From Antedon mediterranea (lineage: Eukaryota > Animalia > Echinodermata): a stretch of DNA of 64,000 bases. Made by a program: the position numbers and the translations under genes. The DNA lies in NCBI RefSeq assembly GCF_964355755.1, contig NC_092670.1, positions 7,368,201 to 7,432,200 of the forward strand, given 5' to 3'. The notes beneath the pieces were generated by a model. That model saw nothing but the letters and a program-made list of their open reading frames with translations, searched no databases and had not been told where the DNA came from. This document shows positions 2,561 through 18,000 of this stretch, in pieces (positions within the stretch are counted from its first letter, which is position 1; each line of letters starts with the position of its first letter).

Positions 2561-2768
2561 CGCAAATAAAAATTAAACAAATTGTAACTCTTAAAAATGA
2601 CAACCACTATGAGACCATAATTCAATTTTGCATCCCACCCCACATCTTGATAACTAGTAAAGATGAACATAAATATTATTGCAAATAAATTATTTAAATT
2701 AAAATATAATCAAACAGTTTATTGAAAAAAATGGATGCACTCAAGAGGTAGGAAAATGTGTCACTTAC

Positions 2769-3062
2769 CATTCTTAGTTCTTCTCGTACTGGTTTGAGGG
2801 CGCCAACTCTTCTATTACTACCGTTAAGGCCTTTGTTGCTCCCAGACATCATTAAGTGTTGATAACTAAGACTACTAAGATTGCCGAACTGAAGGTTGGA
2901 TGGGTTCGCTCCGTACGGTTCAAACACTTCGGGGCGCGAAGTTGGAAAACTACTTTCGGAAAGGCACAAACTGCGAGGACGTGGAAAGTGAGGTGCAAAC
3001 AAATTCTGGTTTGATAGATGCTGGAAGCTCAAATTACGTAAACTCTCGGAGCGAATAGGCAT
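2769..3062 (-). CDS. KIF13: KIF13 exon 33, Ser/Pro-rich tail exon, possibly alternative (MPIRSESLR...[10 protein letters not shown])
   Basis: cacAG acceptor, GTAAGT donor, 294 nt, phase 0-0, GC-rich island in AT-rich intron. Confidence 0.78.
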
Positions 3063-6000
3063 CTGTGAAATGATTAGTACAAAAATCCATATAAAGGCAA
3101 CTGAGTAGATTTTGAATATTTGTTGATAATAGTTGAATAATGTTGTTTTTAATTAATTTATGACAGGTACAGATTTTGAGGACAGAGTGTAAGTGAAAGA
3201 AAGAAGGTGAACAAAAAATACAAAGAGTAGGTAGAAAAGATCATATCAATTTATGATAAAGAGGAGATGATGAATGATGAATGAGAATAGTTTTACATAG
3301 TTATGCAATAGACAACAACAAATGATGGAAAAAAGAAATATGAAAGAATAGATGAGCAGATAGAAAGATTAAATATGAAAGAATAGATGAGCAGATAGAA
3401 AGATTAAATTTGTTTTAAAGAGATTGATGGTGATTTTCAATATCAAAACAAGATAAAACAGGAAAAAACCGAATACAACGTCACAGTAAATACAATTACA
3501 GACAAAATCCACCAATATATTTGATAAAAGAAAAATAACAAACCAACAAAACGAAAGAAAACCAACCAACAAAATAACATGCCACAAATTCAATGAATAA
3601 TTTTAACATTACAACAACAAAATATACATTTTCCCAATTATATACAAATTAGATTAAATTATTAAAAATGATTAACAATTTTAAATGGTTATATCATGCA
3701 GAAGTAGGTGTATACATCAAATGTCAATCATGCCATATAAGGAAATCAATCCATATAAGGTATACAAGAGAAGGATATAAAGTTAACAGACAAATAGGAG
3801 ACATTAAGCAACGATACCACACATCGTCAACAGACCAGAGGACATCAATAGCATACGGCAATGAGTATCCAGGCAGAGAATGGTTTAACGAATGCAACAG
3901 GAAAAGAAAACAACTCCGTTAGAAAACCAAATCAACCCAATTCTAAACGCTTTCTTAACTAAAATATGAAAATGTTTCATTTGTAAACATGAAACAACTT
4001 TAATAAGTTGCATTCTATTCACCGAATACAATACATTTTAATATTTGTCTATGGTTCATTGTCTATGTTTGTCAATTTGTTATGTACTTATGTAAATAAT
4101 GTCCACACTAAAAATTGATCGAATATGAATATCAACAATATCCACAATACAACTTAAATATTTACATGCAAAAACCTACAAAAAGTGCAGTCAGTTTGTA
4201 AATCAATTTCAGCAAATATATAGAGTATATGTGCATATTCAACCATTATTCATTGATATCTCAATTTAAATACTGCGGGTTGGGTGGAGGAAGAAATGCT
4301 GATAATTTATATTTATTGCGATAATGTAATTTTTTTTATTGAATAAGTTTTTACATTTTTTTTTCTTATCATCCAACATTTGGAGAGGGATAGGACGTTG
4401 AGCTGAACATAATTTTTATTTGCTCCACAAGGACATAAAATATAAACGAAAATAAATATTCGGATTTAAAAATGTTTATAACTGGAATTTTGTCAGTACT
4501 GATCCTTGATTAAGCTCAAACATGTGTTGTTTTTCTGAACTCATTTCTGATAGCAGACATCTCCTATGGATACTGTATGTTCAGATTCTTAACAGGAGAG
4601 TTAAGGCCCGTTTATACTAGGATGATAACGAACAACATAAAGATTAATTTCATCAACGAGAGTAATGAACGGTTATTCTATTTTTCTAGGATGAAAACTT
4701 TTCTAATTTTTTTTGTTTTCTGTAGAAAAAATGTATATTTATAAATTTATTGTTAGTTTTTATTATGAGTAGTATAAACAGACTTCTAAGTCTGAACTAC
4801 ACCATGGATTAGAGTAAGACAGTTGTTAATTACACCTGACATCCAGAGTTCATAACATTAGAGGATAGACTATATGGATTAACAAATGTTACAGTACTTC
4901 TAGTATCAGTGATTTGTATGCCCGTCACAGACATGGCTGCCAAGTATAACGAAACTCTCAAATTTGATGTAGGAATTGAGAAAGTTAATCAATGTGTCTG
5001 AACACAATACACAATTAGTCTAACCAATAAAGTACAAATAAAGTAACTTCTATGTCAGGAATATTAAAATAAAAAACAATTCAGTAATCACGAATTATGC
5101 AATACACCTTTAACAGTCAAATAATGTTTTGAAGATAACCAAAATATCCATTAATTAATTAACTCAATTTGCAATATACCTGACTATTATTATTAGATCA
5201 TGTTTTTATTGCAAGGTCAAAAACATTGTAAAAATTGTTGATTGTCATAAGTAATACAGTCTTTTTGACTAATTACATAACCAAATCTTATTGACTGTAT
5301 TATATTGCCTTTTGAAACCAAGATCAATGTTTGTTTTGATGAATCAAGATATTGGATAAAATTATGAACAGAAAAATTCAAATATTATTTGTCCTTCAAA
5401 ATGCGGTTTAGTACACCACTTTGCATATTCTATTTTTAGAATTTATAGATGATATATTTATATTGCCTCATAAAGGTAGCAATTGAAAATAATATTTTTT
5501 AATTAATACAAAATATACATTTCAGTAATACAATAGAAACATATAAAGAGGCGATAATTTGGGACCAAATTCCTCATTAGTTGTGTCCCTTGATTAGAGG
5601 TTGACCATAGTGTTAAAACAAATATTTTTTCCATTGTTTGGTGTGTTGGTACCTGAGTAGGGGTGTCTAAAAGGAGAGGTTCATTTTCTTTTAGTTGACA
5701 ATAACTGAAAGCTTTCAATAAAAAAATAGTTGAATTATACCATATTTATTATAAACCCTTTATAAATGAATAACATTAATATTAACAGTTATATTTCTGT
5801 GATAACTCATAATCAGTGGTGCTTTATATACTGTCATAACATTGGTTGAAAGTAGTGGAGCTGTAGCTTGGTGGTTAACGTGCTTGCCTTCCAATCCCAA
5901 GGTCCCGGGTTCAATCCTGACCTAGTGCAGGGTTGTAACTCATGACTCTTTCAACTCCACTCCCTAAGCCTCAAATGAGACTTAGTTTATAAGCACGATA

Positions 6001-9000
6001 AATTAATAAATAGTTTATCTATCCTGTAATTGCCGAGTTACTCGCTGTTGGATGAGTATGAAATAAAAAATAAATAAAAAAATAAAAAAAAATAAAGTTT
6101 TTAATTTCTTTTTAAACTGATTGCAAATCATCTAAAACAAGTTACGATTCGCCAAATTGGTTTAGAAAAATTGTTTGTGAAAAAATGTTTTGTAAAATAT
6201 ATATTATTCTGTGTTTGGTCTACAAACATGTTAACTTGAAAATTACTTATATTGTATAGAAAAAGTACAGGTATGAATTTTATATCACATTAAGACCTAT
6301 TTTTACATCATAATAGTCATTACATTATTATAAATATGTGTAGATAAGCAGTGTGGAAAAACACATAAGAATTTTAAATGAATACATATCCATTAATATG
6401 ATAAATGTTCACAAAGAAAAATATAATCATACATTTATAAGCTGGTAAAAATTTATTCTCATGAGGGATTCGCATTATCTCCAAAAATGTGTAACCGTTC
6501 ATTTTAATGAGTCAAGTGAGGTGGGATGATTTTGTAATGTTTTCTTCTTACTACGACAGTACTATGATTTATTGTTTTATTCAACAGTTTTGTATGTATT
6601 TTATTGTACTAAATTCTTTATATTAAAATGTTAATATTGAATCAACAAAAAAAAAAAAATAATGTACCACTTGTATGTTGTTCAAATTTGTAATAAAACA
6701 AAATAATAGATTGCTATAGCCTTGAATCAACCTTTTAGACATTGGAGTTTAGAAGACATTTTACTGTGAAACAAACATACAAAAATATATTTCAACACTA
6801 ATGGCAAACCTCTATTCAGCTCTATTAAGGGACAGTTTGTTGGGTGCCAAACGTGTGATCTTAATAAATGTGAGTAGGATTATTAAATTGAATCACATTG
6901 TAAAGATAAGAAGTTGAAAATAAGCATGGTAAATTGGAGTTTAGAAGACACTTTCCTGTGAAACGAACCTATTAAAATATATGTTAACACTATGGTAAAC
7001 CTCTATTCAGCTCTATTAAGGGACAGTTTGTTGGGTAAGGTGTGATCTTAATAAATGTGGTACTGCATGAAGTAGAATTATTGCATTGTATCACATTGTA
7101 AAGATAAGAAGTTGAAATAAGCATTGTAAATTGGAGTTTAGAAGACACTTTCCTGTGAAACGAACCTATTAAAATTTATTTTAACACCATGGCAGCTCTT
7201 ATTAAGATACAGTTTGTTGGGTCCCGAAGGTTTGATCTTAATAAGGTGGTACTGCACAGAGTAGAATTATTGCATTGTAAAGATAAGAAGTTGAAAATTT
7301 ATGAAAATTCAATGCAATGCAATATTAAGTAGATTCGGATTTCTTGTAACCAAGTACATTATGCATGAGAAGCATGATACCATAAGTCGTTAATGCCGTT
7401 TTAATTACAGCACTGACATCAACACAATCACAAGATTCAGAGTGTTATCGGGAATTAATCATACACAAATGCATATCATATTATCATAATTTTGTCAATA
7501 AAGTTTATATTCAATTCATAAAAAAATGCTATTCTTGTACATGGCTCAATTTATTAGTAGCCTCTAGTCGTAGGTAATAGCCCCAATTCTAGTTTTGATG
7601 ATTTTCCGGGTTACTAAATTCAGGTAATTGAATACCTGGATAGAAATTGAGGGGGCTTTGGTTATTAACAAACACATTACGCAATTTATTAAGAATATTT
7701 TATGTCTGAAATGCTATTAGCCAAACTTGTAACTCTTTATCTTGTTATCATTTCAACGGCACTTTAATCATAGAGGCAGAATCCATAGCTTAACATAAAT
7801 TTTGAGATGGTTATTTATAGATCATGCTATTCTGAATCTCTTAATAGCAATGATACAGATGGTATAGCAAGTGTCACAATAATAATAAAGCATTCAACTT
7901 TGCTCTGTAAAATTACAATATCTAGTGTAACACACTTGAACCTGTGGGGACATCTCTTGAAAGTGAAAGATTTCCCATAACAGACTGTCATTCACAATTT
8001 TTTTATTATCTATATTCTGTATAGAATTAATGCATAACGGTTCCTTCATAGGGGGTTCTAGATGGCCCCCAAATGTTAAATTATGTGATGGTGCTATGCA
8101 ATCATATGTCTGTCTGGGAACTGGGAAACCTGATACCATTATTAAAAAAGTTTTATATGTTGTTCTATATGTCAATTTTATATTGTAAATCAATTGTATG
8201 TATGAAATATGTATATCATGTTTTTGTTATTATTAACACAGCAGTATAGAGTCATCTTACATACATAATAATATATATATGAAATCCAGTATTACACACA
8301 CTAAAATCACTTTCTATCCGGGTACTGGGATACTTGATACCATTATTAAGTTTTATATGTTGTTCTATATATGTCAATAATTTATTAAATTGTAAATCAT
8401 ATTAAATTAATGATAATGTATGTATATAAAAAGGATATCATGTTTTTGTTATTATAACACAGCAGTATAGAATTATCTTACAAACATAATAATATATGTA
8501 TGAAATTCTATACATTATATGTAATATCTGTATCACTATATGACAAAGTGTACATTATGATAATCAAGTAGTTATACCATGCGAGTTTTCGACAGCTTTA
8601 ATACAATGTTTAGTTAGCAAGTTAAGAAAATATTAAAATGTCATAAACAGAATCAAGGTCTTGCATTGAAATTAAAATCCATAGGGAGCACTTAGCAAAA
8701 ATAATATTTCTATGTTGCTATTAAAACTATATTGCTATCAAAGTACTTTTTTAGGTAGCTGTATGTAATATAGGAGAAGCGGGAGAGAGTGACAGTTGTT
8801 ATTAATCTCTCATATTTACTAAAATTACAGTCTGCTTTTATCTCTCATATTGGCTAAAACAGTGCATACATTAATCTCTCATATTGACTAAAACAGTCTG
8901 TATTCATCTCAAATAGAGAGAACATAATTATTGGCTAAAATAGAGGAAATAATGTATTCAAAAATGTGCGTCACTTTAACTTCATTTTTTTTTCATTTGC

Positions 9001-12000
9001 ATTTTGGGAAAGAGCAAATAACATTGTGAGCTTAAGACTTTGCAGTGTGACAATAATAGATCATCAGTAATAGTCTGCAATTGTACTTCTCCGCATTTGC
9101 ATTTACCAACACAAGATCACAGGAATTAGGAACGGACTATGCGCTCAAGACTGGAGAAAATGGCAGCAAGAGAGGTGGTGACTATGATGAGCACACCAAC
9201 AGAGAATGAGCATACTGATTGACTCCTAACTCTTTGTACATCATGATCCACATTTTTTTCTAAAGACAAGTAAATGAAGGTAATGATCTTGCCAAAGCTA
9301 GATGCCACTGACTGGGTATGAACTCAGCCCTGGTCTTTGAGTTCCCTACAACTGTGCCATCTTGATCTTATGTAAAAATATCCCTGAACCAACTACTTCC
9401 AAAGTCCTATACTCAAGATGTGTTCAGAGGTACATTCAATTACTGTGAAATCTTAATGTATACAATATGTATCCAATGAACGAAAGCTTTGTAAGTTCCC
9501 TTCAACATGCTACCCAGAAGAAAATGAAAGAAAAAAAAACACAAACAGCAGAACTCCTCAAATATTTGCAGTACTGTTTCGTCATTTGTGAACCCAATTT
9601 AATTTAATCCAGGCCTTTGAAAAAGATAGTTTTACACACTCGCTCAATAGAAATAGATAACCTTATCTTTAAGTCCAAGGGATTCCAAATTCTATTTTAC
9701 CATTATAAAAACACATTAGGAATATCAGAATTTCTGGAAGGGAGATTTTATTTAAATTATAATAATGAAAGAGGTAATTGAGGGCCTTACTTGTCAAGTG
9801 TATTGAGGAGTTCTACTGTACTGTTTACTAGAATCAATCAATGCCTATAGTACTCACCCTAAATTCATTGTCAAAGCTTTCAGACCGTGACATGTCATAG
9901 GTTGAAGACATGGCAGCTTGCTGTCAACAAAAATACAAAGTCAAGCTAATTAAGTAATATGTTATAATTATTCGCTATTGAAAAAATGTGTAAATAATGT
10001 TTTAATGGAAGCAGAAAAACTTTAAACCACCCAGTGATAATGTTGATATGACTAATAATGTGAAAAAATAAAGAAAATAAAACTTTAGTAAAAAAGTTGC
10101 CAAAACTAGAAACTGAAATAAAAATATTTTGCTTGATACTTGCTCCCTTGCATATGAGACATTCAGAATCGTACAATCCTAAACTTTTTACATATTTGTT
10201 TCTCTTACAAAATGGTGGACCTTTCAATCACAATTAAAAAATAACTACAGTACTGCGCATACAAAAAACTATAGCCAAAATAACTATAATACTCACATGT
10301 ATATTAGGTACGCTAGCAGTTTTCCGAACTAATTTTCCCTGAGCTGAGAGTTTCTCCTTGATGATAACCTCTTGTCTCAGTCGATCCAATGCAAGTATAC
10401 TCTCCACTGCAGATACTCCTTTGGTATATTTTTCAATGTAGGATTCCCCTTCTTTGTTCTCAGCACCTGTGGCTGCCATCATGGCCAGGGTCTCCCTGTC
10501 TTCTGGATCTTCAAGGGCCTAGTAAATACAAAGAAACTTAAGCTTGGTCTACACTATCAAATTAGTTTGACAGAAAAAAGTGTGATGTGCCCAAATATGG
10601 TAGTTGTATATGACATCATTGTGTCCATATATGGGCATATCACAATTTGTTTGATAGTGTAGACAGAGCTTTGTACAAGTCCATGTTATTTTGTTGTCAT
10701 CCTAATATACCAGTCAATAACACAAGTACATGAGTATCATGAAAGAAACTTACCTTTGGAATGTTTGCGACTATTTCATAAGTAACACCGGAAGAACGAT
10801 GCGTTTCCTATTAAAACAAATGGAATGGATTTTAAATTTTACTAGCAACTTTATATAGTGGGTTCTAAAAGACAAAAGCATTAGTAAAAAAAACAAAACA
10901 TATATGATCACAATTGCAACCCATTCCACAAAAGAATGCTAAAGATTAAAACGAACACATTAATGAACTAGTTATACTAATTATAATGTGATCATTATCG
11001 AATAATTTTCTTTTGCATGAAATTTATCTTAAAGATTAGAGCTCATTTGTTATTATAAACTAAAAAAACTTAATTAACATACAGGCTTAATGTGGTGGTC
11101 AGATCATATTTTTAGAGTCCTGATTTAAATAAATTGGTTGGTTATTGGCTTGAACTAATGGTTTGGTAGTGAATTCCAGTCATTTACAACTCTAACTTAA
11201 ATAATTATCAGATAGTATATACTAAATAAATTCCTGTCCTTTGGATCGCCTCATGAAAATATAATTTCATCTTTCACCTAATGAAATTATTTGTACCATC
11301 GCACTCGTAAACATTTATTATTTGTATACTATTTTGGTGGTGCAATACTAGTACTATTTCTTACCACTTTAGATATTTTGCGTTTCAAGGTGGATGCAAG
11401 ACTTTGTTTCTTGTACACATTTACACATATGCGTTTACGTAGCACGAGTTCCATCATGGCTGGATGACTTAGTTGAACTATGACCTTGATTATCAGGTAG
11501 ATACGCTCATCTTGTGAAGTCACTCTGTTCAGATATGCTGAGTCATGTATAGATGAATCCCATGATGCAATAGCACACACCTGTTTATGGATATGGAAAA
11601 GACAAGTTATGTATTACAATATTAAAGTATATTATTTTTGTTTATGATTTGGACAGTACAATATTAGTACCTGTTATGCTTTATACCTTTTAATTGAATG
11701 AACATACTGCTTTTTCCTTTTTAATAAATTTTAATATAACAAAATATTTCTTTTTGATAGATATTTAATTGTTCACATGTTAATAAGATTATTCTTCAAA
11801 ATCTTAAAAACACAGTTATACCTATCACATGGAAAAATACGGAGATGACATGTCAGTCAACAAAATTATTAAGTGAACACTCATAAATACTGGAAACATT
11901 CAATAAGTTTCTACTGTAAAACCTGTTTTTATCTCCTTTTCTGTATAATAAATTAATTTTGACTTAATATGTACAGATCTATGCTTCTTGTAACTTCTGA

Positions 12001-15000
12001 CCTCACTTGTTCAATTGGCATTATGCTAGAGAGGATTATTAGGTAATTGAAGTGTTTGTCAGATCGACAACCACAACTATGCATAATAAATGCAAAGAGA
12101 TACACTTCACATATACTGTGATACATTAGTACTAATGCATTCCATGTGACCAACAATCATCCAATCAAATGGCAGGAATTAATTTAGATGTTATGTAATA
12201 CTAAAACTGAAATGGACCAAATACTTAACATTCTATCTGTGCTGTATTTCTTAGTTCTACTCCACAAGCATTATATTAATTTTTTATTTAGTTTATAAAT
12301 ACATGTATCTACTTACATCTTTTTCATTGTATTTAACTATTGGTAGACTGATCATTTTAGCCCCATGTTCCTTTGGTAATATTGAGTTGAAAGCAGCAGC
12401 ACAAAAGGTTTCCATCGAGTCATAAGCACCCATATCATCAGCTGAAAAACAAACACAAAATAATGAATGCACATAATTAAGTAACAAGTGTAAGATTGAG
12501 CAAAGGAATGAGACTCATGCTTTAAATAAGGTTTAAGTTTAAGACTCTGTCCTTAAAGCTCTGTCTACACTATCAAACTAGTTTAAAAAAAAGTGTGATG
12601 TGCCCAAATATGGTAGTGATATTACATCAACACATCTATTATGAGCACATCAAATTTGTTGTCAGTTTGATAGTGTAGACAAGGCTTTAAAGATGCATCC
12701 TCAAACTTCTATTATGAATCATTTTCCATACAGTTTCAATAATCATTAAATAGAAAAAGCATTTTCTGGATAATTACAATATATATTCTGTAATAACTGT
12801 CTAGACATTAAATCTTGTTTTTGTGAATATGTCAATGTGACAATACAATAACAACTGTGTTTATACTAGATGGAGAAAATTGTTATTGACACTTGGTTAC
12901 AAAAATACAACACTAAAAAAAAAAATAATAAATTTAGCTTTTAGGAATTGAAAGTAATAATTGGCAAAATGCAGAAAGACAGAGGACATGTTATTTAATA
13001 TCTAAGCAAGTTCCGTCAGAGCTTCTGCAGATGGATTTATGAATGAATTGAGGCCATCATCACTTTTAATCAGGCTTATACCTACACGACCTTCAACAAA
13101 ATACTATGGACAATCTCAATCAGGAAAGCTGAATCACTCACCACATTCAAAGAACTCGTCAAATCACACCTTTTTAATTTGCACTTTCCTCATTCCTCTT
13201 TTACTAATATTTTCTATTTATTGTTCAGCGCTTAGAAACGACCTGCATTTTATGCTATATTAAATTGACCATTATTATTAATATTACAATTTTGTGAGAT
13301 CACTACGGTCAGATAGCTTGAGACTTACTATTTAAGTCAAGGAAGAGTACAGGCACATGAGTTTCCATGCCAGCTGGTGGATGCCAGCTGGCCACAGCAC
13401 CTGGAATGCCACTACCATGAGCCGGCACCAACACGGCATTACGCTCTTCCGTTAATGATACCCATTGGTTGATTAAACTTGCTTCCCTTTCCATGTCTTG
13501 CTCGGTTTTTCCAGCTGAAAAGAGAGGGAATTATATTTCAAGACATTTCAAAATTGTTTACACTTTTCTACATTGACTAAATTTAGAAATCGTTCATATT
13601 ACATCACACTTTTGTTTATCTTTTTACATTGTATTTTATAAATGGTAATAAACAATTTTGTTTTAATAATCACATTTTTTGTAAAAGATAATAAAAACTA
13701 GATGACATTTTTTTTAAACATTTTTCTTTTTTCCAGTAAAGAAGCATGACACTTTAGATTTTCTTTTCATCTCGCTGCTGAGTTAATTGTATTGCTGACA
13801 ATAGACAGTATGATATAACTTAACAATGATAATTTAGCACATTAGAGCTTTTGGCTATATATTTTCTTGATGAAAGAATTTCTAAAAATAAGATATATCA
13901 TTTTACATACAAAAAGAAGCTAATATGGCTGTTATATGATAGTATACACATCTACAATATTGAGATTTAAATGGGCAATAATGAGTACTGACATATATTA
14001 ATATTATATTCTGATAAAAAACACATTATATGAATGAACTGTATGAAAAAATCATTATAACCTAAATGCAAAACACATATCCAATACCAAAAATTAATTG
14101 GCAATATCGGATAACCAACAGGAATAAGATTGATTTTCTTGTTATGATGCTATAGGTAGAGCAATGACCGAGTAAGGATTTGAACCTAAAACCTTGGTAG
14201 TATGTTAACCACTACTATATATAGCTTTAGCAACTCCACCACTTAGTATTTTTTATCTATTTATTATGATAATTACAAATAGATCAATTATTATCATCAA
14301 TTGAAAAAAAGAAAAACAATATTTAGGAAAAAATTTAGTTAAACACTGATTTTCTAACTGTTGATAACCATGAATTAATTAACCAAAAAATTGATATTAT
14401 TAAAAACTTGAAAAATTGTATTCATCTAATGATTATGATATCAATGTGACCTCCTCTATCTTTATTATCGTTCACTTTGACTACATTTCTAAGCTCATGG
14501 TTGCAAAATCTGAATCAGAAAAAAAATTACTCCTCCACAATGTAAGTCATACATTGTGATGAAGCACTAAACATTAATGCCCAGTACCATCATGTGTTTT
14601 TAGATATATATTCTGCATTAGTTAGGATGATTATACATACATGTAAATGTGATGTACAGTAGTTGTTATTATTCTACATGTATGATTATGATAAATTTAT
14701 GACATTGTTTTAGTATATAATTGGCACAAAGCTTCTTTAATAATTTGAGGCAACGAAAGGCATTTACAAGTTCTAAACACCTTAGGCTTTTATTACGGAT
14801 TTTATTAGGATTATACCAGATGCAATTAGTATAACAAAATGGCTACCCAGAAATGTTGGTTAGAAAGAGGTATATAAACAATATAGAAATAGGTCTCAAG
14901 ACAGAAAGAGGTTACAACATTGAAAGAGGTCGCAGAGCATAGACAGAGGTCACAACAAAGAAAGAAGTTACAACATAGAAAGAGTTCACAACATAGAAAG

Positions 15001-18000
15001 AGGTTACAACACAGAAGGTTACAACATAGAAAGAGGTCAAAACACAGAAAGAGTTCACAACATAGAAAGAGGTTACAACACAGAAGGTTACAACATAGAA
15101 AGAGGTCAAAACACAGAAAGAGGTCACAACATAGAAAGAGGTCACAACACAGAAAGAGGTCACAACATAGAAGGTTACAACATAGAAAGAGGTCACAACA
15201 TAGAAAGAGGTCACAGAGCATAGACAGAGGTCACAACATAGAAAGAAGTTACAACATAGAAAGAAGTTACAACATAGAAATAAGTTAGAACGCAGGAGGT
15301 TACAACATAGAAAGAGGTCACAACACAGAAAGAGGTCACAACATAGAAAGAGGTCACAGCACAGAAAGAAGTCACAACAAGGTCACAATACAGAATGACT
15401 TTTAAAATGCATAACAAAGAGGTCAAGGCACATAGAAAGGTCATAGCATTGAAAGAGGTCACAAAATAGAAATGTCATTAAATAAAACGACATCATAACA
15501 TTAGTGTATTATGATACACACATGGAAACATGAATAGCATACATGAGAATTTGTTAATTTTGGACATGAAACCTTTAATAAATCTATATTATTTGCATGT
15601 TGTGTTTCAAGTATCACTTTACCAACTTTGCGGCGACGACGTTTCTTTTCCTGTATAAGTCTTCGAATAAACTCTGTAAATTTATGTTTACTATGGTTAT
15701 TTCTAGAACAATAGATTGTTATGTGTAAACACATAACTAATAAAAGTTTGGCACAATTGGCTTCTAAGCAAGCACATGTGTTACACTTTTACATTTTTAA
15801 CAGTATTACTAAACATTTAAAAGTACAGTATATATAAAGTATACACACTCAAAATCAAAATATATTTAAACAATAAAAATCATTAATTGATAAAAGCTAC
15901 AACAAATCATAAACAATCAATCAATAACACTTAGTTTCCATCATAACAAACATAAAACACATAATGATGGCACATTTACAATAACACAAAGAGCAAACCT
16001 TGAAAAAAGTCAACCTAAACACATTTTGCTGTATCTTGTATAGATATACATACCTTTTTTGTTGATGATTTTATGTATTTGTTCATCTAAGTGTTCTCGT
16101 CGTTTCATCAGTGCCTCCGACCACCTGTCTCTAAGTTTATTCAAATCACCATCTTGATAGCTGTCCAACGCTTTTTGTAATTTTGATCGGTTAGTAATAC
16201 TACCTATGGATACTGCTGTGATAGCCTCGCATATTATGGGTAGTGTTCCAGAATTCTGTACTGGTTGTACCCAAACTTTCACTCTCCTAGACTGACCCTA
16301 AAAACAGATTGATAAGAAATGAGGCAACAACTACATTTGTTTTAAGATTACAAACACTGTCCATAGATACAATGCTGATTGAGTCAGTACTGTTTGTGTG
16401 TATGAAGTATAGTTTTATAACTTGGTAATTGCAATATACTAATTACCTGTCTAAGTTGGAAGACACCACCTGATAGGATATCTGGTCTTTGTGTGCACTC
16501 AACCGAAACATAATCACCCTGTTCATTTAATTCCTGAATCTCAACCCACATCTCTACTTTGTGTGTAAGTTCTTTCCATCTAATTAAAAAAAAAGAAATA
16601 GAACTTGGAAGAGTTAATTGTGAATGAAGAATTTGGGAGTGTAAAGGTAGGCTTAGGTAGGCTTACAGTATGTGACCTTTCAACTGAGTGGCGTTTCTTT
16701 CAGTTCCACATCGAAAATAAGCCCACTAGAATCTATCCAGGGAATAAAACTGTGATGCCCAAATAGTCACTTTCAGAATAAATTAAACGAAAAAAGTCTC
16801 TACCTGTCAGCTAAAGATCTTGACTTCGCATGGATATTTTCCATTTGCCAGCCTGCATTGCTTCCAGAGAAAACTTCCGTTCCTGAGCTGCGATGGCCCC
16901 AGACTTCAACGGCTAACGATCCCTCCAGTGCATGCTCTACAAACTCCTCAGATACATTGACTGTAAACTCCTAAAATAAATGAAATAACCTTATATATAA
17001 GTAGTATTTTTCTAATGCTTGGTTCACACTAGCAACGCAACATAACACAACGAAAGAAAATGCCCTTCCCATAATTGTGTTTTCCCCCGCCTGCATGAAA
17101 TCAAACTTGCTATGTTTGCAGGATTGTTGCGTCGTTGGTTCCCACTTGTGATTATGCAATACAGCACTTTACTTTACTTTACGTCGATACGTCGTTGCCT
17201 TGCGTCCTAGTGGGAACCACGCTTAAATAATTCACCCGAATTGCTCTACATATCCTTGCAGTGTAAATATCTGTACATACTCTATTTGCCCAATTGTTGT
17301 AGTTGTTCCAGTCAACATTTTGAAAGGTGTAAACAAAAATTAGAAAGAAAAGAAATTTGCACCGCTCTTTTGCCTTTTTCTTCTAACACTCCTGTTCAGT
17401 ATCCGATTTAAAATGTTAAACATCTTACCCTAGTGTGGTTAAACTTGACCTTGCGTTGTGAATCTTTTGATCTTCTACGTGGAAGTACAAAATCGTCAGT
17501 GTCTGGTCCAATCAATGGTGGTACAACCATCGGACCATCCTGACCCCAAAATGTATACTGGCAGAATACAAAATGGGCTAAGCTAAGAGGAAGTTCTGAG
17601 GCATTCACTATTTTTATCTGTAAATGTCAAATGAAATTATTAGTTAATTATTAGTCTAATCTAATGAATACCAAAATAGAAATGAGAAAAGTTATTTTAA
17701 ATTTATGACTACAGATAAGTCATCTGGAGATTGTGGCTTCAAGTAAAACCATCAGATCAAGAGGAACAATGAAAAAGAAAGGACTTGCAACGACCTAAAG
17801 ATCAAAGGACAATTTGATGCACCAATCTATGCTGAAGCACTACTACCTAAAAAATATATTTGAAACCAATGTCATCAGGAGGGAGCTTAACGGCGCATAC
17901 ACACAGTATGATTTTGTTTATTTTTGTAAAATTATAGGTGGTGTGCATGGTGGCAAAAGACATTGTACCAGTGACCTGAGATTTGTTCTCTTCTCTACGG

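Follow-up and report, generated by a model that had tools for sequence, protein, structure and literature searches.

How could a splice acceptor be used when its own surroundings hold none of the usual signals, and why do the 811 nt that lead up to it contain not a single AG? Both questions arise at the 3' end of one intron of the crinoid Antedon mediterranea, in a stretch of 64,000 nt (the window hereafter) in which a kinesin gene is read on the minus strand, from higher to lower positions. A preliminary description of this DNA had proposed an extremely distant branch point serving an exon of 294 nt. The reading we favor, at a probability of roughly six in ten, is that a choice between two branch points, one at -819 and one proximal, switches the tail of the kinesin, and that the AG-free zone is the path from the distant site at 3919 to the first of two acceptors.

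The KIF13 gene and its alternative ends

The minus-strand gene is crinoid KIF13 (kinesin-3), an identity given in the preliminary description and borne out by protein domains and by matches to proteins of Antedon and Anneissia. Identity between the exons of the window and Antedon mediterranea proteins is 100% or close to it, 32 of the 33 junctions tried could be placed by spliced alignment, and Pfam finds kinesin motor, FHA, KIF1B and DUF3694 domains in the matching Antedon proteins. The 98-codon exon (3062-2769) has one match, Anneissia japonica KIF13A at 88%. A metagenome scan with these 98 residues gave one match, with 38% identity over 40 residues, which was treated as spurious. Elsewhere in the gene, a 51-nt cassette exon (about 15673-15623, minus strand) is present in 8 of 11 Antedon isoforms and in none of the six Anneissia isoforms checked; it codes for a very basic 17-residue stretch that resembles a nuclear-localisation signal or a membrane-binding patch. 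Three more cassette exons vary among the Antedon isoforms (22101-22048, 20149-20105 and one of 24 nt that lies between 35217 and 30571).

The donor at 9857 opens an intron of 6.8 kb, and the AG-free zone lies at the 3' end of that intron. Two acceptors follow, separated by 38 nt and referred to below as acceptors 1 and 2 (Table 1); the zone stops at acceptor 1. Transcript evidence includes one sequencing run, X5, which was taken as RNA by guess and whose exon-to-exon loose ends fit RNA. One contig of this run goes straight from the last bases of the 63-nt exon to 3062, the product of acceptor 2, and loose ends at 2769 lead to an exon outside the window reading SNGQL-stop, as in Antedon isoform X8. 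The reading frame entered through acceptor 1 ends in LPLYGFLY, the exact end of Antedon isoform X9, which predicts a short form of 1464 residues with the motor. By Pfam, CAP-Gly is found in the long form only and is missing from the short one. If the short form is real, one gene would supply motors with and without a CAP-Gly tail.

The stop codon of the short form lies 305 nt before the 2769 donor, a position prone to decay if splicing continues from there, and decay of this mRNA may occur. The conserved terminal peptide suggests that the short form is probably translated, and its transcript possibly ends at a nearby poly(A) site. One contig of run X5 continues past the 2769 donor into the intron; together with the AATAAA at 2723, this is a weak hint of a terminal-exon form of the short isoform. 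Two direct copies of an element of about 650 nt (1914-2560 and 4540-5160, about 90-96% alike and some 2.6 kb apart) flank the 294-nt exon and the AG-free zone and are probably a repeat family or a local duplication, and three diverged direct copies of about 190 nt lie within the 6.8-kb intron at 6726-7300.

Table 1. Positions of the features discussed, numbered along the window, with strand and basis of each
Feature	Position	Strand	Basis or remark
63-nt upstream exon (QAAMSS...NEFR)	9858..9920	-	spliced alignment; loose end in run X5
Predicted distant branch site TTTTCTAAC, branch A at 3919	3918..3926	-	sequence
AG 4-5 nt past the branch A, too close for use	3914..3915	-	sequence
Pyrimidine tract beside the distant branch site, 18 nt	3896..3913	-	sequence
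Best-conserved block of the zone, branch-site end	3784..3925	-	organism B: unsubstituted among the listed differences, one insertion of 2 nt
AG exclusion zone, 811 nt	3103..3913	-	sequence, shuffles, comparison with organism B
Three GCATG, candidate RBFOX-type sites	3733-3729, 3699-3695 (as TGCATG, 3700-3695), 3582-3578	-	sequence
35-nt perfect tandem duplication, AG-free	3336..3409	.	repeat search
Five-copy YCAY cluster	3267..3284	-	sequence; two copies lost in organism B (3273 and 3269 substituted)
Acceptor 1, first AG past the zone, A-rich 5' side, no pyrimidine tract	3101..3102	-	score; annotated isoforms P0134 and P0002
Dual-use 38-nt segment	3063..3100	-	short form: LPLYGFLY and stop (3076-3074); long forms: branch motif, tract, AG
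Proximal branch motif TACTAAT, A at 3074	3073..3079	-	sequence; 3' of acceptor 1
Acceptor 2, conventional	3063..3064	-	joined to the 63-nt exon in RNA-like run X5; score
294-nt exon, 98 codons	2769..3062	-	continues, via exons beyond the window, into the SNGQL-stop form or the long tail with CAP-Gly
AATAAA, candidate poly(A) signal for the short form	2718..2723	-	46 nt past the 2769 donor
Proteins with other tail variation at the same point: P0144, P0176, P0018, P0020, P0021			protein comparison

The AG-free zone and the branch motif at its edge

Between 3103 and 3913 the plus strand is without CT, so that the minus-strand pre-mRNA is without AG for 811 nt, and the zone is bounded by CTs at 3101-3102 and 3914-3915. 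The preliminary description had predicted 20-30 AGs from base composition, and this estimate held: 22.5 are expected and none is seen, with 20,000 shuffles of the zone giving a mean of 22.5 and a minimum of 9. Shuffling inside 20-nt blocks gave a mean of 18.7 and a minimum of 5. The run is the longest AG-free one on the minus strand of the whole 64-kb window. The second longest, of 502 nt (15398-14897), is an 18-nt minisatellite in mid-intron, and a human zone of 369 nt has been put down to a repeat (Gooding et al., 2006; PMC1431707). An origin of the skew in chance, low complexity, a repeat or an antisense element can hardly be credited here, however, with only 74 of the 811 nt made up of tandem repeat, no shuffle approaching zero, no Rfam match for the zone, folding of the whole zone no better than that of shuffles (z +1.34), and both zone edges coinciding with splice signals. 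The low-complexity or antisense origin, which had been named among the findings that would count against the proposal, is largely refuted. As had been claimed, the 35-nt duplication is AG-free, but it extends to 3409; in the related organism described below it appears to be single-copy, judging by gap letters and a loose end.

On the folding result and the lack of an Rfam match, an RNA structure bridging the 0.8 kb was rejected. An exon hidden in the zone was rejected too, as run X5 has no joint there and only low-depth pieces. The minisatellite (14878-15379, 28 copies of the 18-nt unit, AG-free on the minus strand for 502 nt and an adjoining 172 nt) lies 3' of a cassette exon, with the next acceptor some 1.4 kb away, and is therefore not an acceptor-linked zone. 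Among the acceptors of this gene, the set against which the zone was ranked, the 31 others have AG-free stretches with a median of 42 and a maximum of 94 nt. Against the 150 nt or more of AG-free sequence directly 5' of the 3' splice site that marks distant-branch-point introns, acceptor 1 has 811 nt. The zone had been thought to end at the acceptors of the 294-nt exon; in fact it ends at the AG 3102-3101, and the acceptor of the 294-nt exon has an AG-free stretch of 36 nt.

At the other end, the zone starts 5 nt past the A of a TTCTAAC motif, at -819 from acceptor 1 and -857 from acceptor 2. This motif and the AG at 3915-3914 were confirmed as first reported, and AGs less than 12-15 nt from a branch site are bypassed in the systems treated by Gooding et al. 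(PMC1431707). The AG separates the motif from its pyrimidine tract. The tract that had been placed ahead of the zone is present, but inside the zone (3913-3896) and past the bypassed AG. The 30 nt after the motif are 70% pyrimidine, while AG density upstream of the branch site is normal, with 10 in 200 nt and 43 in 1000 nt. A mutually exclusive exon adjoining the branch site was considered and rejected: the AGs at 3960, 3955 and 3944 score only 0.5 to 1.7, and such an exon near 3919 is absent from all 11 Antedon isoform proteins.

The zone was compared with a related organism, organism B, known from two contig runs with 9-10 differences over about 360 nt around the exon. It covers 2750-3968 continuously and the flanking intron in patches; the interval 4066-4102, with contig depth above 1000, is likely part of a high-copy repeat. 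Inside the zone organism B carries at least 34 substitutions and at least 13 indels, and none of those listed creates an AG. From the 33 scored substitutions 2.2 AG gains would be expected (P about 0.08, weak alone and for listed differences only). The check for AG absence in related species that had been called for agrees with the proposal in this one organism. Among the listed differences, the motif is unchanged at 3918-3925, and the sole change in the tract (3896-3913) is a 2-nt insertion. Immediately 5' of the motif, organism B has gained an AG at 3927-3926 through two substitutions. On these listed differences the zone is conserved in its ortholog, and it is not derived from a repeat. A distant branch near 3919 is thus well supported, if indirectly, by the sharp edge of the zone, the conservation of 3784-3925 and the normal AG density upstream. 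Contrary to the original proposal, it most likely serves the acceptor at 3102-3101 and not the 294-nt exon, which has a proximal motif of its own and is the one joined in run X5.

Distant branching could also be real and take place mostly at nearer sites (3783, 3827 or 3672), with 3919 minor or a former site. The zone holds seven further branch-like motifs, one of them, at 3783, followed by a stretch with 73% pyrimidine, and long mammalian zones can use several sites (Corvelo et al., PMC2991248). We consider this very improbable, since in organism B position 3781 is substituted and 3783 bears an insertion while the 3919 motif has no listed change, and since AG exclusion all the way to 3913 requires that 3919 be used.

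The zone had further been described as a platform for Nova/RBFOX-type regulators. Three GCATG motifs are present as reported, but only one is a TGCATG; 0.3 are expected, three are reached in 4 of 2000 dinucleotide shuffles, and none has a listed change in organism B. The YCAY cluster stands out as such, being matched in 12 of 2000 shuffles, but over the whole zone the motif is no more frequent than expected (22 copies against 19.7 in shuffles), and two of the five clustered copies are lost in organism B. The regulator platform is thus only partly supported. Judging by the three GCATG motifs, the spacer probably carries regulator sites that would set the isoform ratio by tissue.

Alternatively, the zone may be a pyrimidine-rich regulatory platform, with acceptor 1 using a weak local branch and regulators and AGs purged as cryptic acceptors near U-rich tracts. 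Several 25-nt windows of the zone are indeed 80-84% pyrimidine, GCATG is enriched, and distal branch sites in human minigenes affected productive splicing only modestly in the experiments presented by Taggart et al. (2017; PMC5378181). However, AG absence extends through the A-rich parts of the zone (3700-3601 and 3175-3103) and survives block shuffling, the zone stops exactly at the branch motif, and the best-conserved block is at that end and not at the acceptor end. We consider the platform an unlikely explanation of the zone, although it comes closest of the alternatives to the preferred branch-point choice.

Two acceptors and a segment read in two ways

Acceptors were scored with a matrix built from the 31 other acceptors of the gene, themselves scored leave-one-out, with 2464 decoy AGs as background. 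Acceptor 1 scores -4.6, below all of the others (3.9 to 13.7) and at the 34th percentile of the decoys. Its bases -25 to -4 are 50% A, and with the pattern used no consensus branch motif occurs between 3443 and 3101. Acceptor 2 is an ordinary site by the same measure, with a score of 5.9 that exceeds 96% of the decoys and an AG-free stretch of only 36 nt. Acceptor 1 is used nonetheless according to annotated isoforms that match its product, a support made up of database gene models (one possibly from the same assembly) and one assembled-run protein of a sea cucumber, whereas the single RNA-like run X5 shows only acceptor 2. As contigs drop rare variants, the gap of X5 over 3064-3101 was not counted as absence of acceptor 1 use. 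An acceptor that looks like a decoy and is used would have to draw its signals from elsewhere, and the AG-free path leads to it from 3919.

By its AG-free zone, its branch motif with tract, the AG density upstream, a signal-less acceptor and conservation, the intron works like a distant-branch-point intron. In the mechanism that we propose, U2 snRNP and U2AF would assemble at 3919 and the first step of splicing would take place there. The spliceosome would then take the first usable AG, 3102-3101, which would need no tract of its own, and the product would be the short motor form without CAP-Gly. Any new AG in the zone would capture this distant pathway, which is why AGs would have been purged from it. 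Were a proximal site used instead (the TACTAAT with its A at 3074, or some other A of the 38-nt segment), acceptor 1 would lie 5' of the branch and could not be chosen, so that acceptor 2 would be used and the longer tails would follow.

The segment between the two acceptors would thereby be read as both code and splice signal, since TACTAAT, the proximal branch motif, also holds the last Tyr codon and the stop of the short form. This overlap could explain the final Tyr and some of the hydrophobic residues without selection on the protein. It offers no obvious reason for the Pro at position 2, the Tyr at 4 and the Gly at 5, all of which are invariant.

Only 12 nt separate the proximal A from acceptor 2, close to the minimum for a branch point, and acceptor 2 is the one seen in run X5. 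These points favor a version with a single distant branch point for the two acceptors, in which a hairpin or a weak context often causes the first AG to be skipped and control is exerted at the second step; in keeping with it, the minimum-energy fold places acceptor 1 within a hairpin loop. The hairpin is weak, however (-4.0 to -4.4 kcal/mol, z -0.05 and +0.99), the competition between AGs described by Gooding et al. (PMC1431707) is for spacings below 12 nt and not 38, and acceptor 2 scores as an ordinary, self-sufficient site. We therefore hold a single branch point for both acceptors to be quite unlikely, a little more so than the platform.

Known distant branch points and the spread of the short ending

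Distant-branch-point exons with AG exclusion zones were defined by Gooding et al. (2006), with PTB exon 11, nPTB, GABBR1 exon 23 and HTR4 among the cases treated (PMC1431707). The KIF13 intron shares with these a long AG-free stretch, a motif and tract at its 5' end, a bypassed near AG, normal upstream AG density and alternative splicing. It differs in its distance, predicted at 819 nt here and verified up to about 400 nt there, the known upper range as given by Corvelo et al. (PMC2991248). Branch sites at -275 and -351 are verified in the former account, which also lists an unverified human zone of 1126 nt (PTPRS) that is only 229 nt in mouse (PMC1431707). The outcome differs as well. Most of those cases concern cassette exons or mutually exclusive ones, whereas the outcome in KIF13 is a choice of acceptor that ends the protein; for long zones in general, the same account gives no excess of alternative-acceptor events (PMC1431707).

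Branch position steers the choice of AG also in human introns described by Taggart et al. (2017), where the spliceosome is obliged to take the downstream AG if it branches at the upstream one or past it, and where distal branch sites may act mainly as holding states (PMC5378181). In those introns both branch sites are near the acceptors, whereas in KIF13 the predicted partner lies at a distance of about 0.8 kb, and the proximal motif also supplies the Tyr and stop codons of the short form. The nearest functional analogue is exon 9A9' of Xenopus tpm1, for which a distant branch point was mapped in vivo at 274 nt (10.1101/2022.03.17.484714). It likewise has an AG-free spacer, there with regulatory elements and an AG-independent acceptor, and it also chooses between alternative C-termini, the exon being internal or terminal. 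However, tpm1 has one acceptor, makes its choice at the 3' end of the exon and spans a distance three times shorter than that of KIF13.

We thus regard the KIF13 intron as a long, ancient-looking variant of known distant-branch-point splicing. It would offer a natural test, at twice the range of about 400 nt, of how large a gap between branch point and 3' splice site the spliceosome can span and of whether it truly scans, with a built-in readout in that the two predicted branch sites lead to different acceptors and different protein ends. Our literature search, mostly of open papers, found none on a short KIF13 isoform or on echinoderm distant branch points, and supplements may list longer distances.

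On the protein side, human KIF13B uses its CAP-Gly domain to raise landing and processivity on tyrosinated microtubules (10.1101/2022.08.09.503328). The echinoderm proteins share with KIF13A and KIF13B the motor, FHA, KIF1B and DUF3694 domains, and CAP-Gly in the long form. They differ in that one gene gives forms with and without the tail by splicing, and in that the aromatic ending of 8 residues was seen in echinoderm proteins only, among the members listed of the 267 proteins compared.

Three echinoderm classes have retained the last 8 residues of this unstudied short form. The ending reads LPLYGFFY in Anneissia isoform X8, IPPYGFFY in Acanthaster isoform X12 and IPLYGFFY in Asterias rubens isoform X5, and LPPYGMFY in the short forms of Holothuria and Apostichopus as well as in a 718-residue assembled-run protein (sea cucumber). 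Among the members listed, it was found in 7 of the 267 proteins, all of them from echinoderms, and in six of the 13 named echinoderm species. The other seven (four sea urchins, a brittle star and two starfish) did not show it among the members listed, nor did three hemichordates or the amphioxus, mollusc, nemertean and arthropod proteins. Fourteen candidate short fragments were examined for the ending and none carried it. Its C-terminal pattern of hydrophobic, any and hydrophobic residues recalls, in our view, the class II PDZ ligands.

The lineages of crinoids, starfish and sea cucumbers have been separate for roughly 480 million years. Tentatively, and with the odds somewhat against it, we suggest that since the common ancestor of the three the KIF13 tail has been switched by branch choice, the far branch point using a signal-less AG to yield a tail-less motor with an aromatic cargo-binding octapeptide, and the proximal one, which doubles as a stop, yielding the CAP-Gly forms; the zone and the twin-acceptor layout are known from crinoid DNA alone. 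Proteins of several echinoderms vary at the same point in other ways. Acanthaster isoform X11 has a 34-residue alternative end and Apostichopus isoform X6 a 2-residue one, and the tail carries inserts of 6 residues in Asterias and 9 residues in sea urchins.
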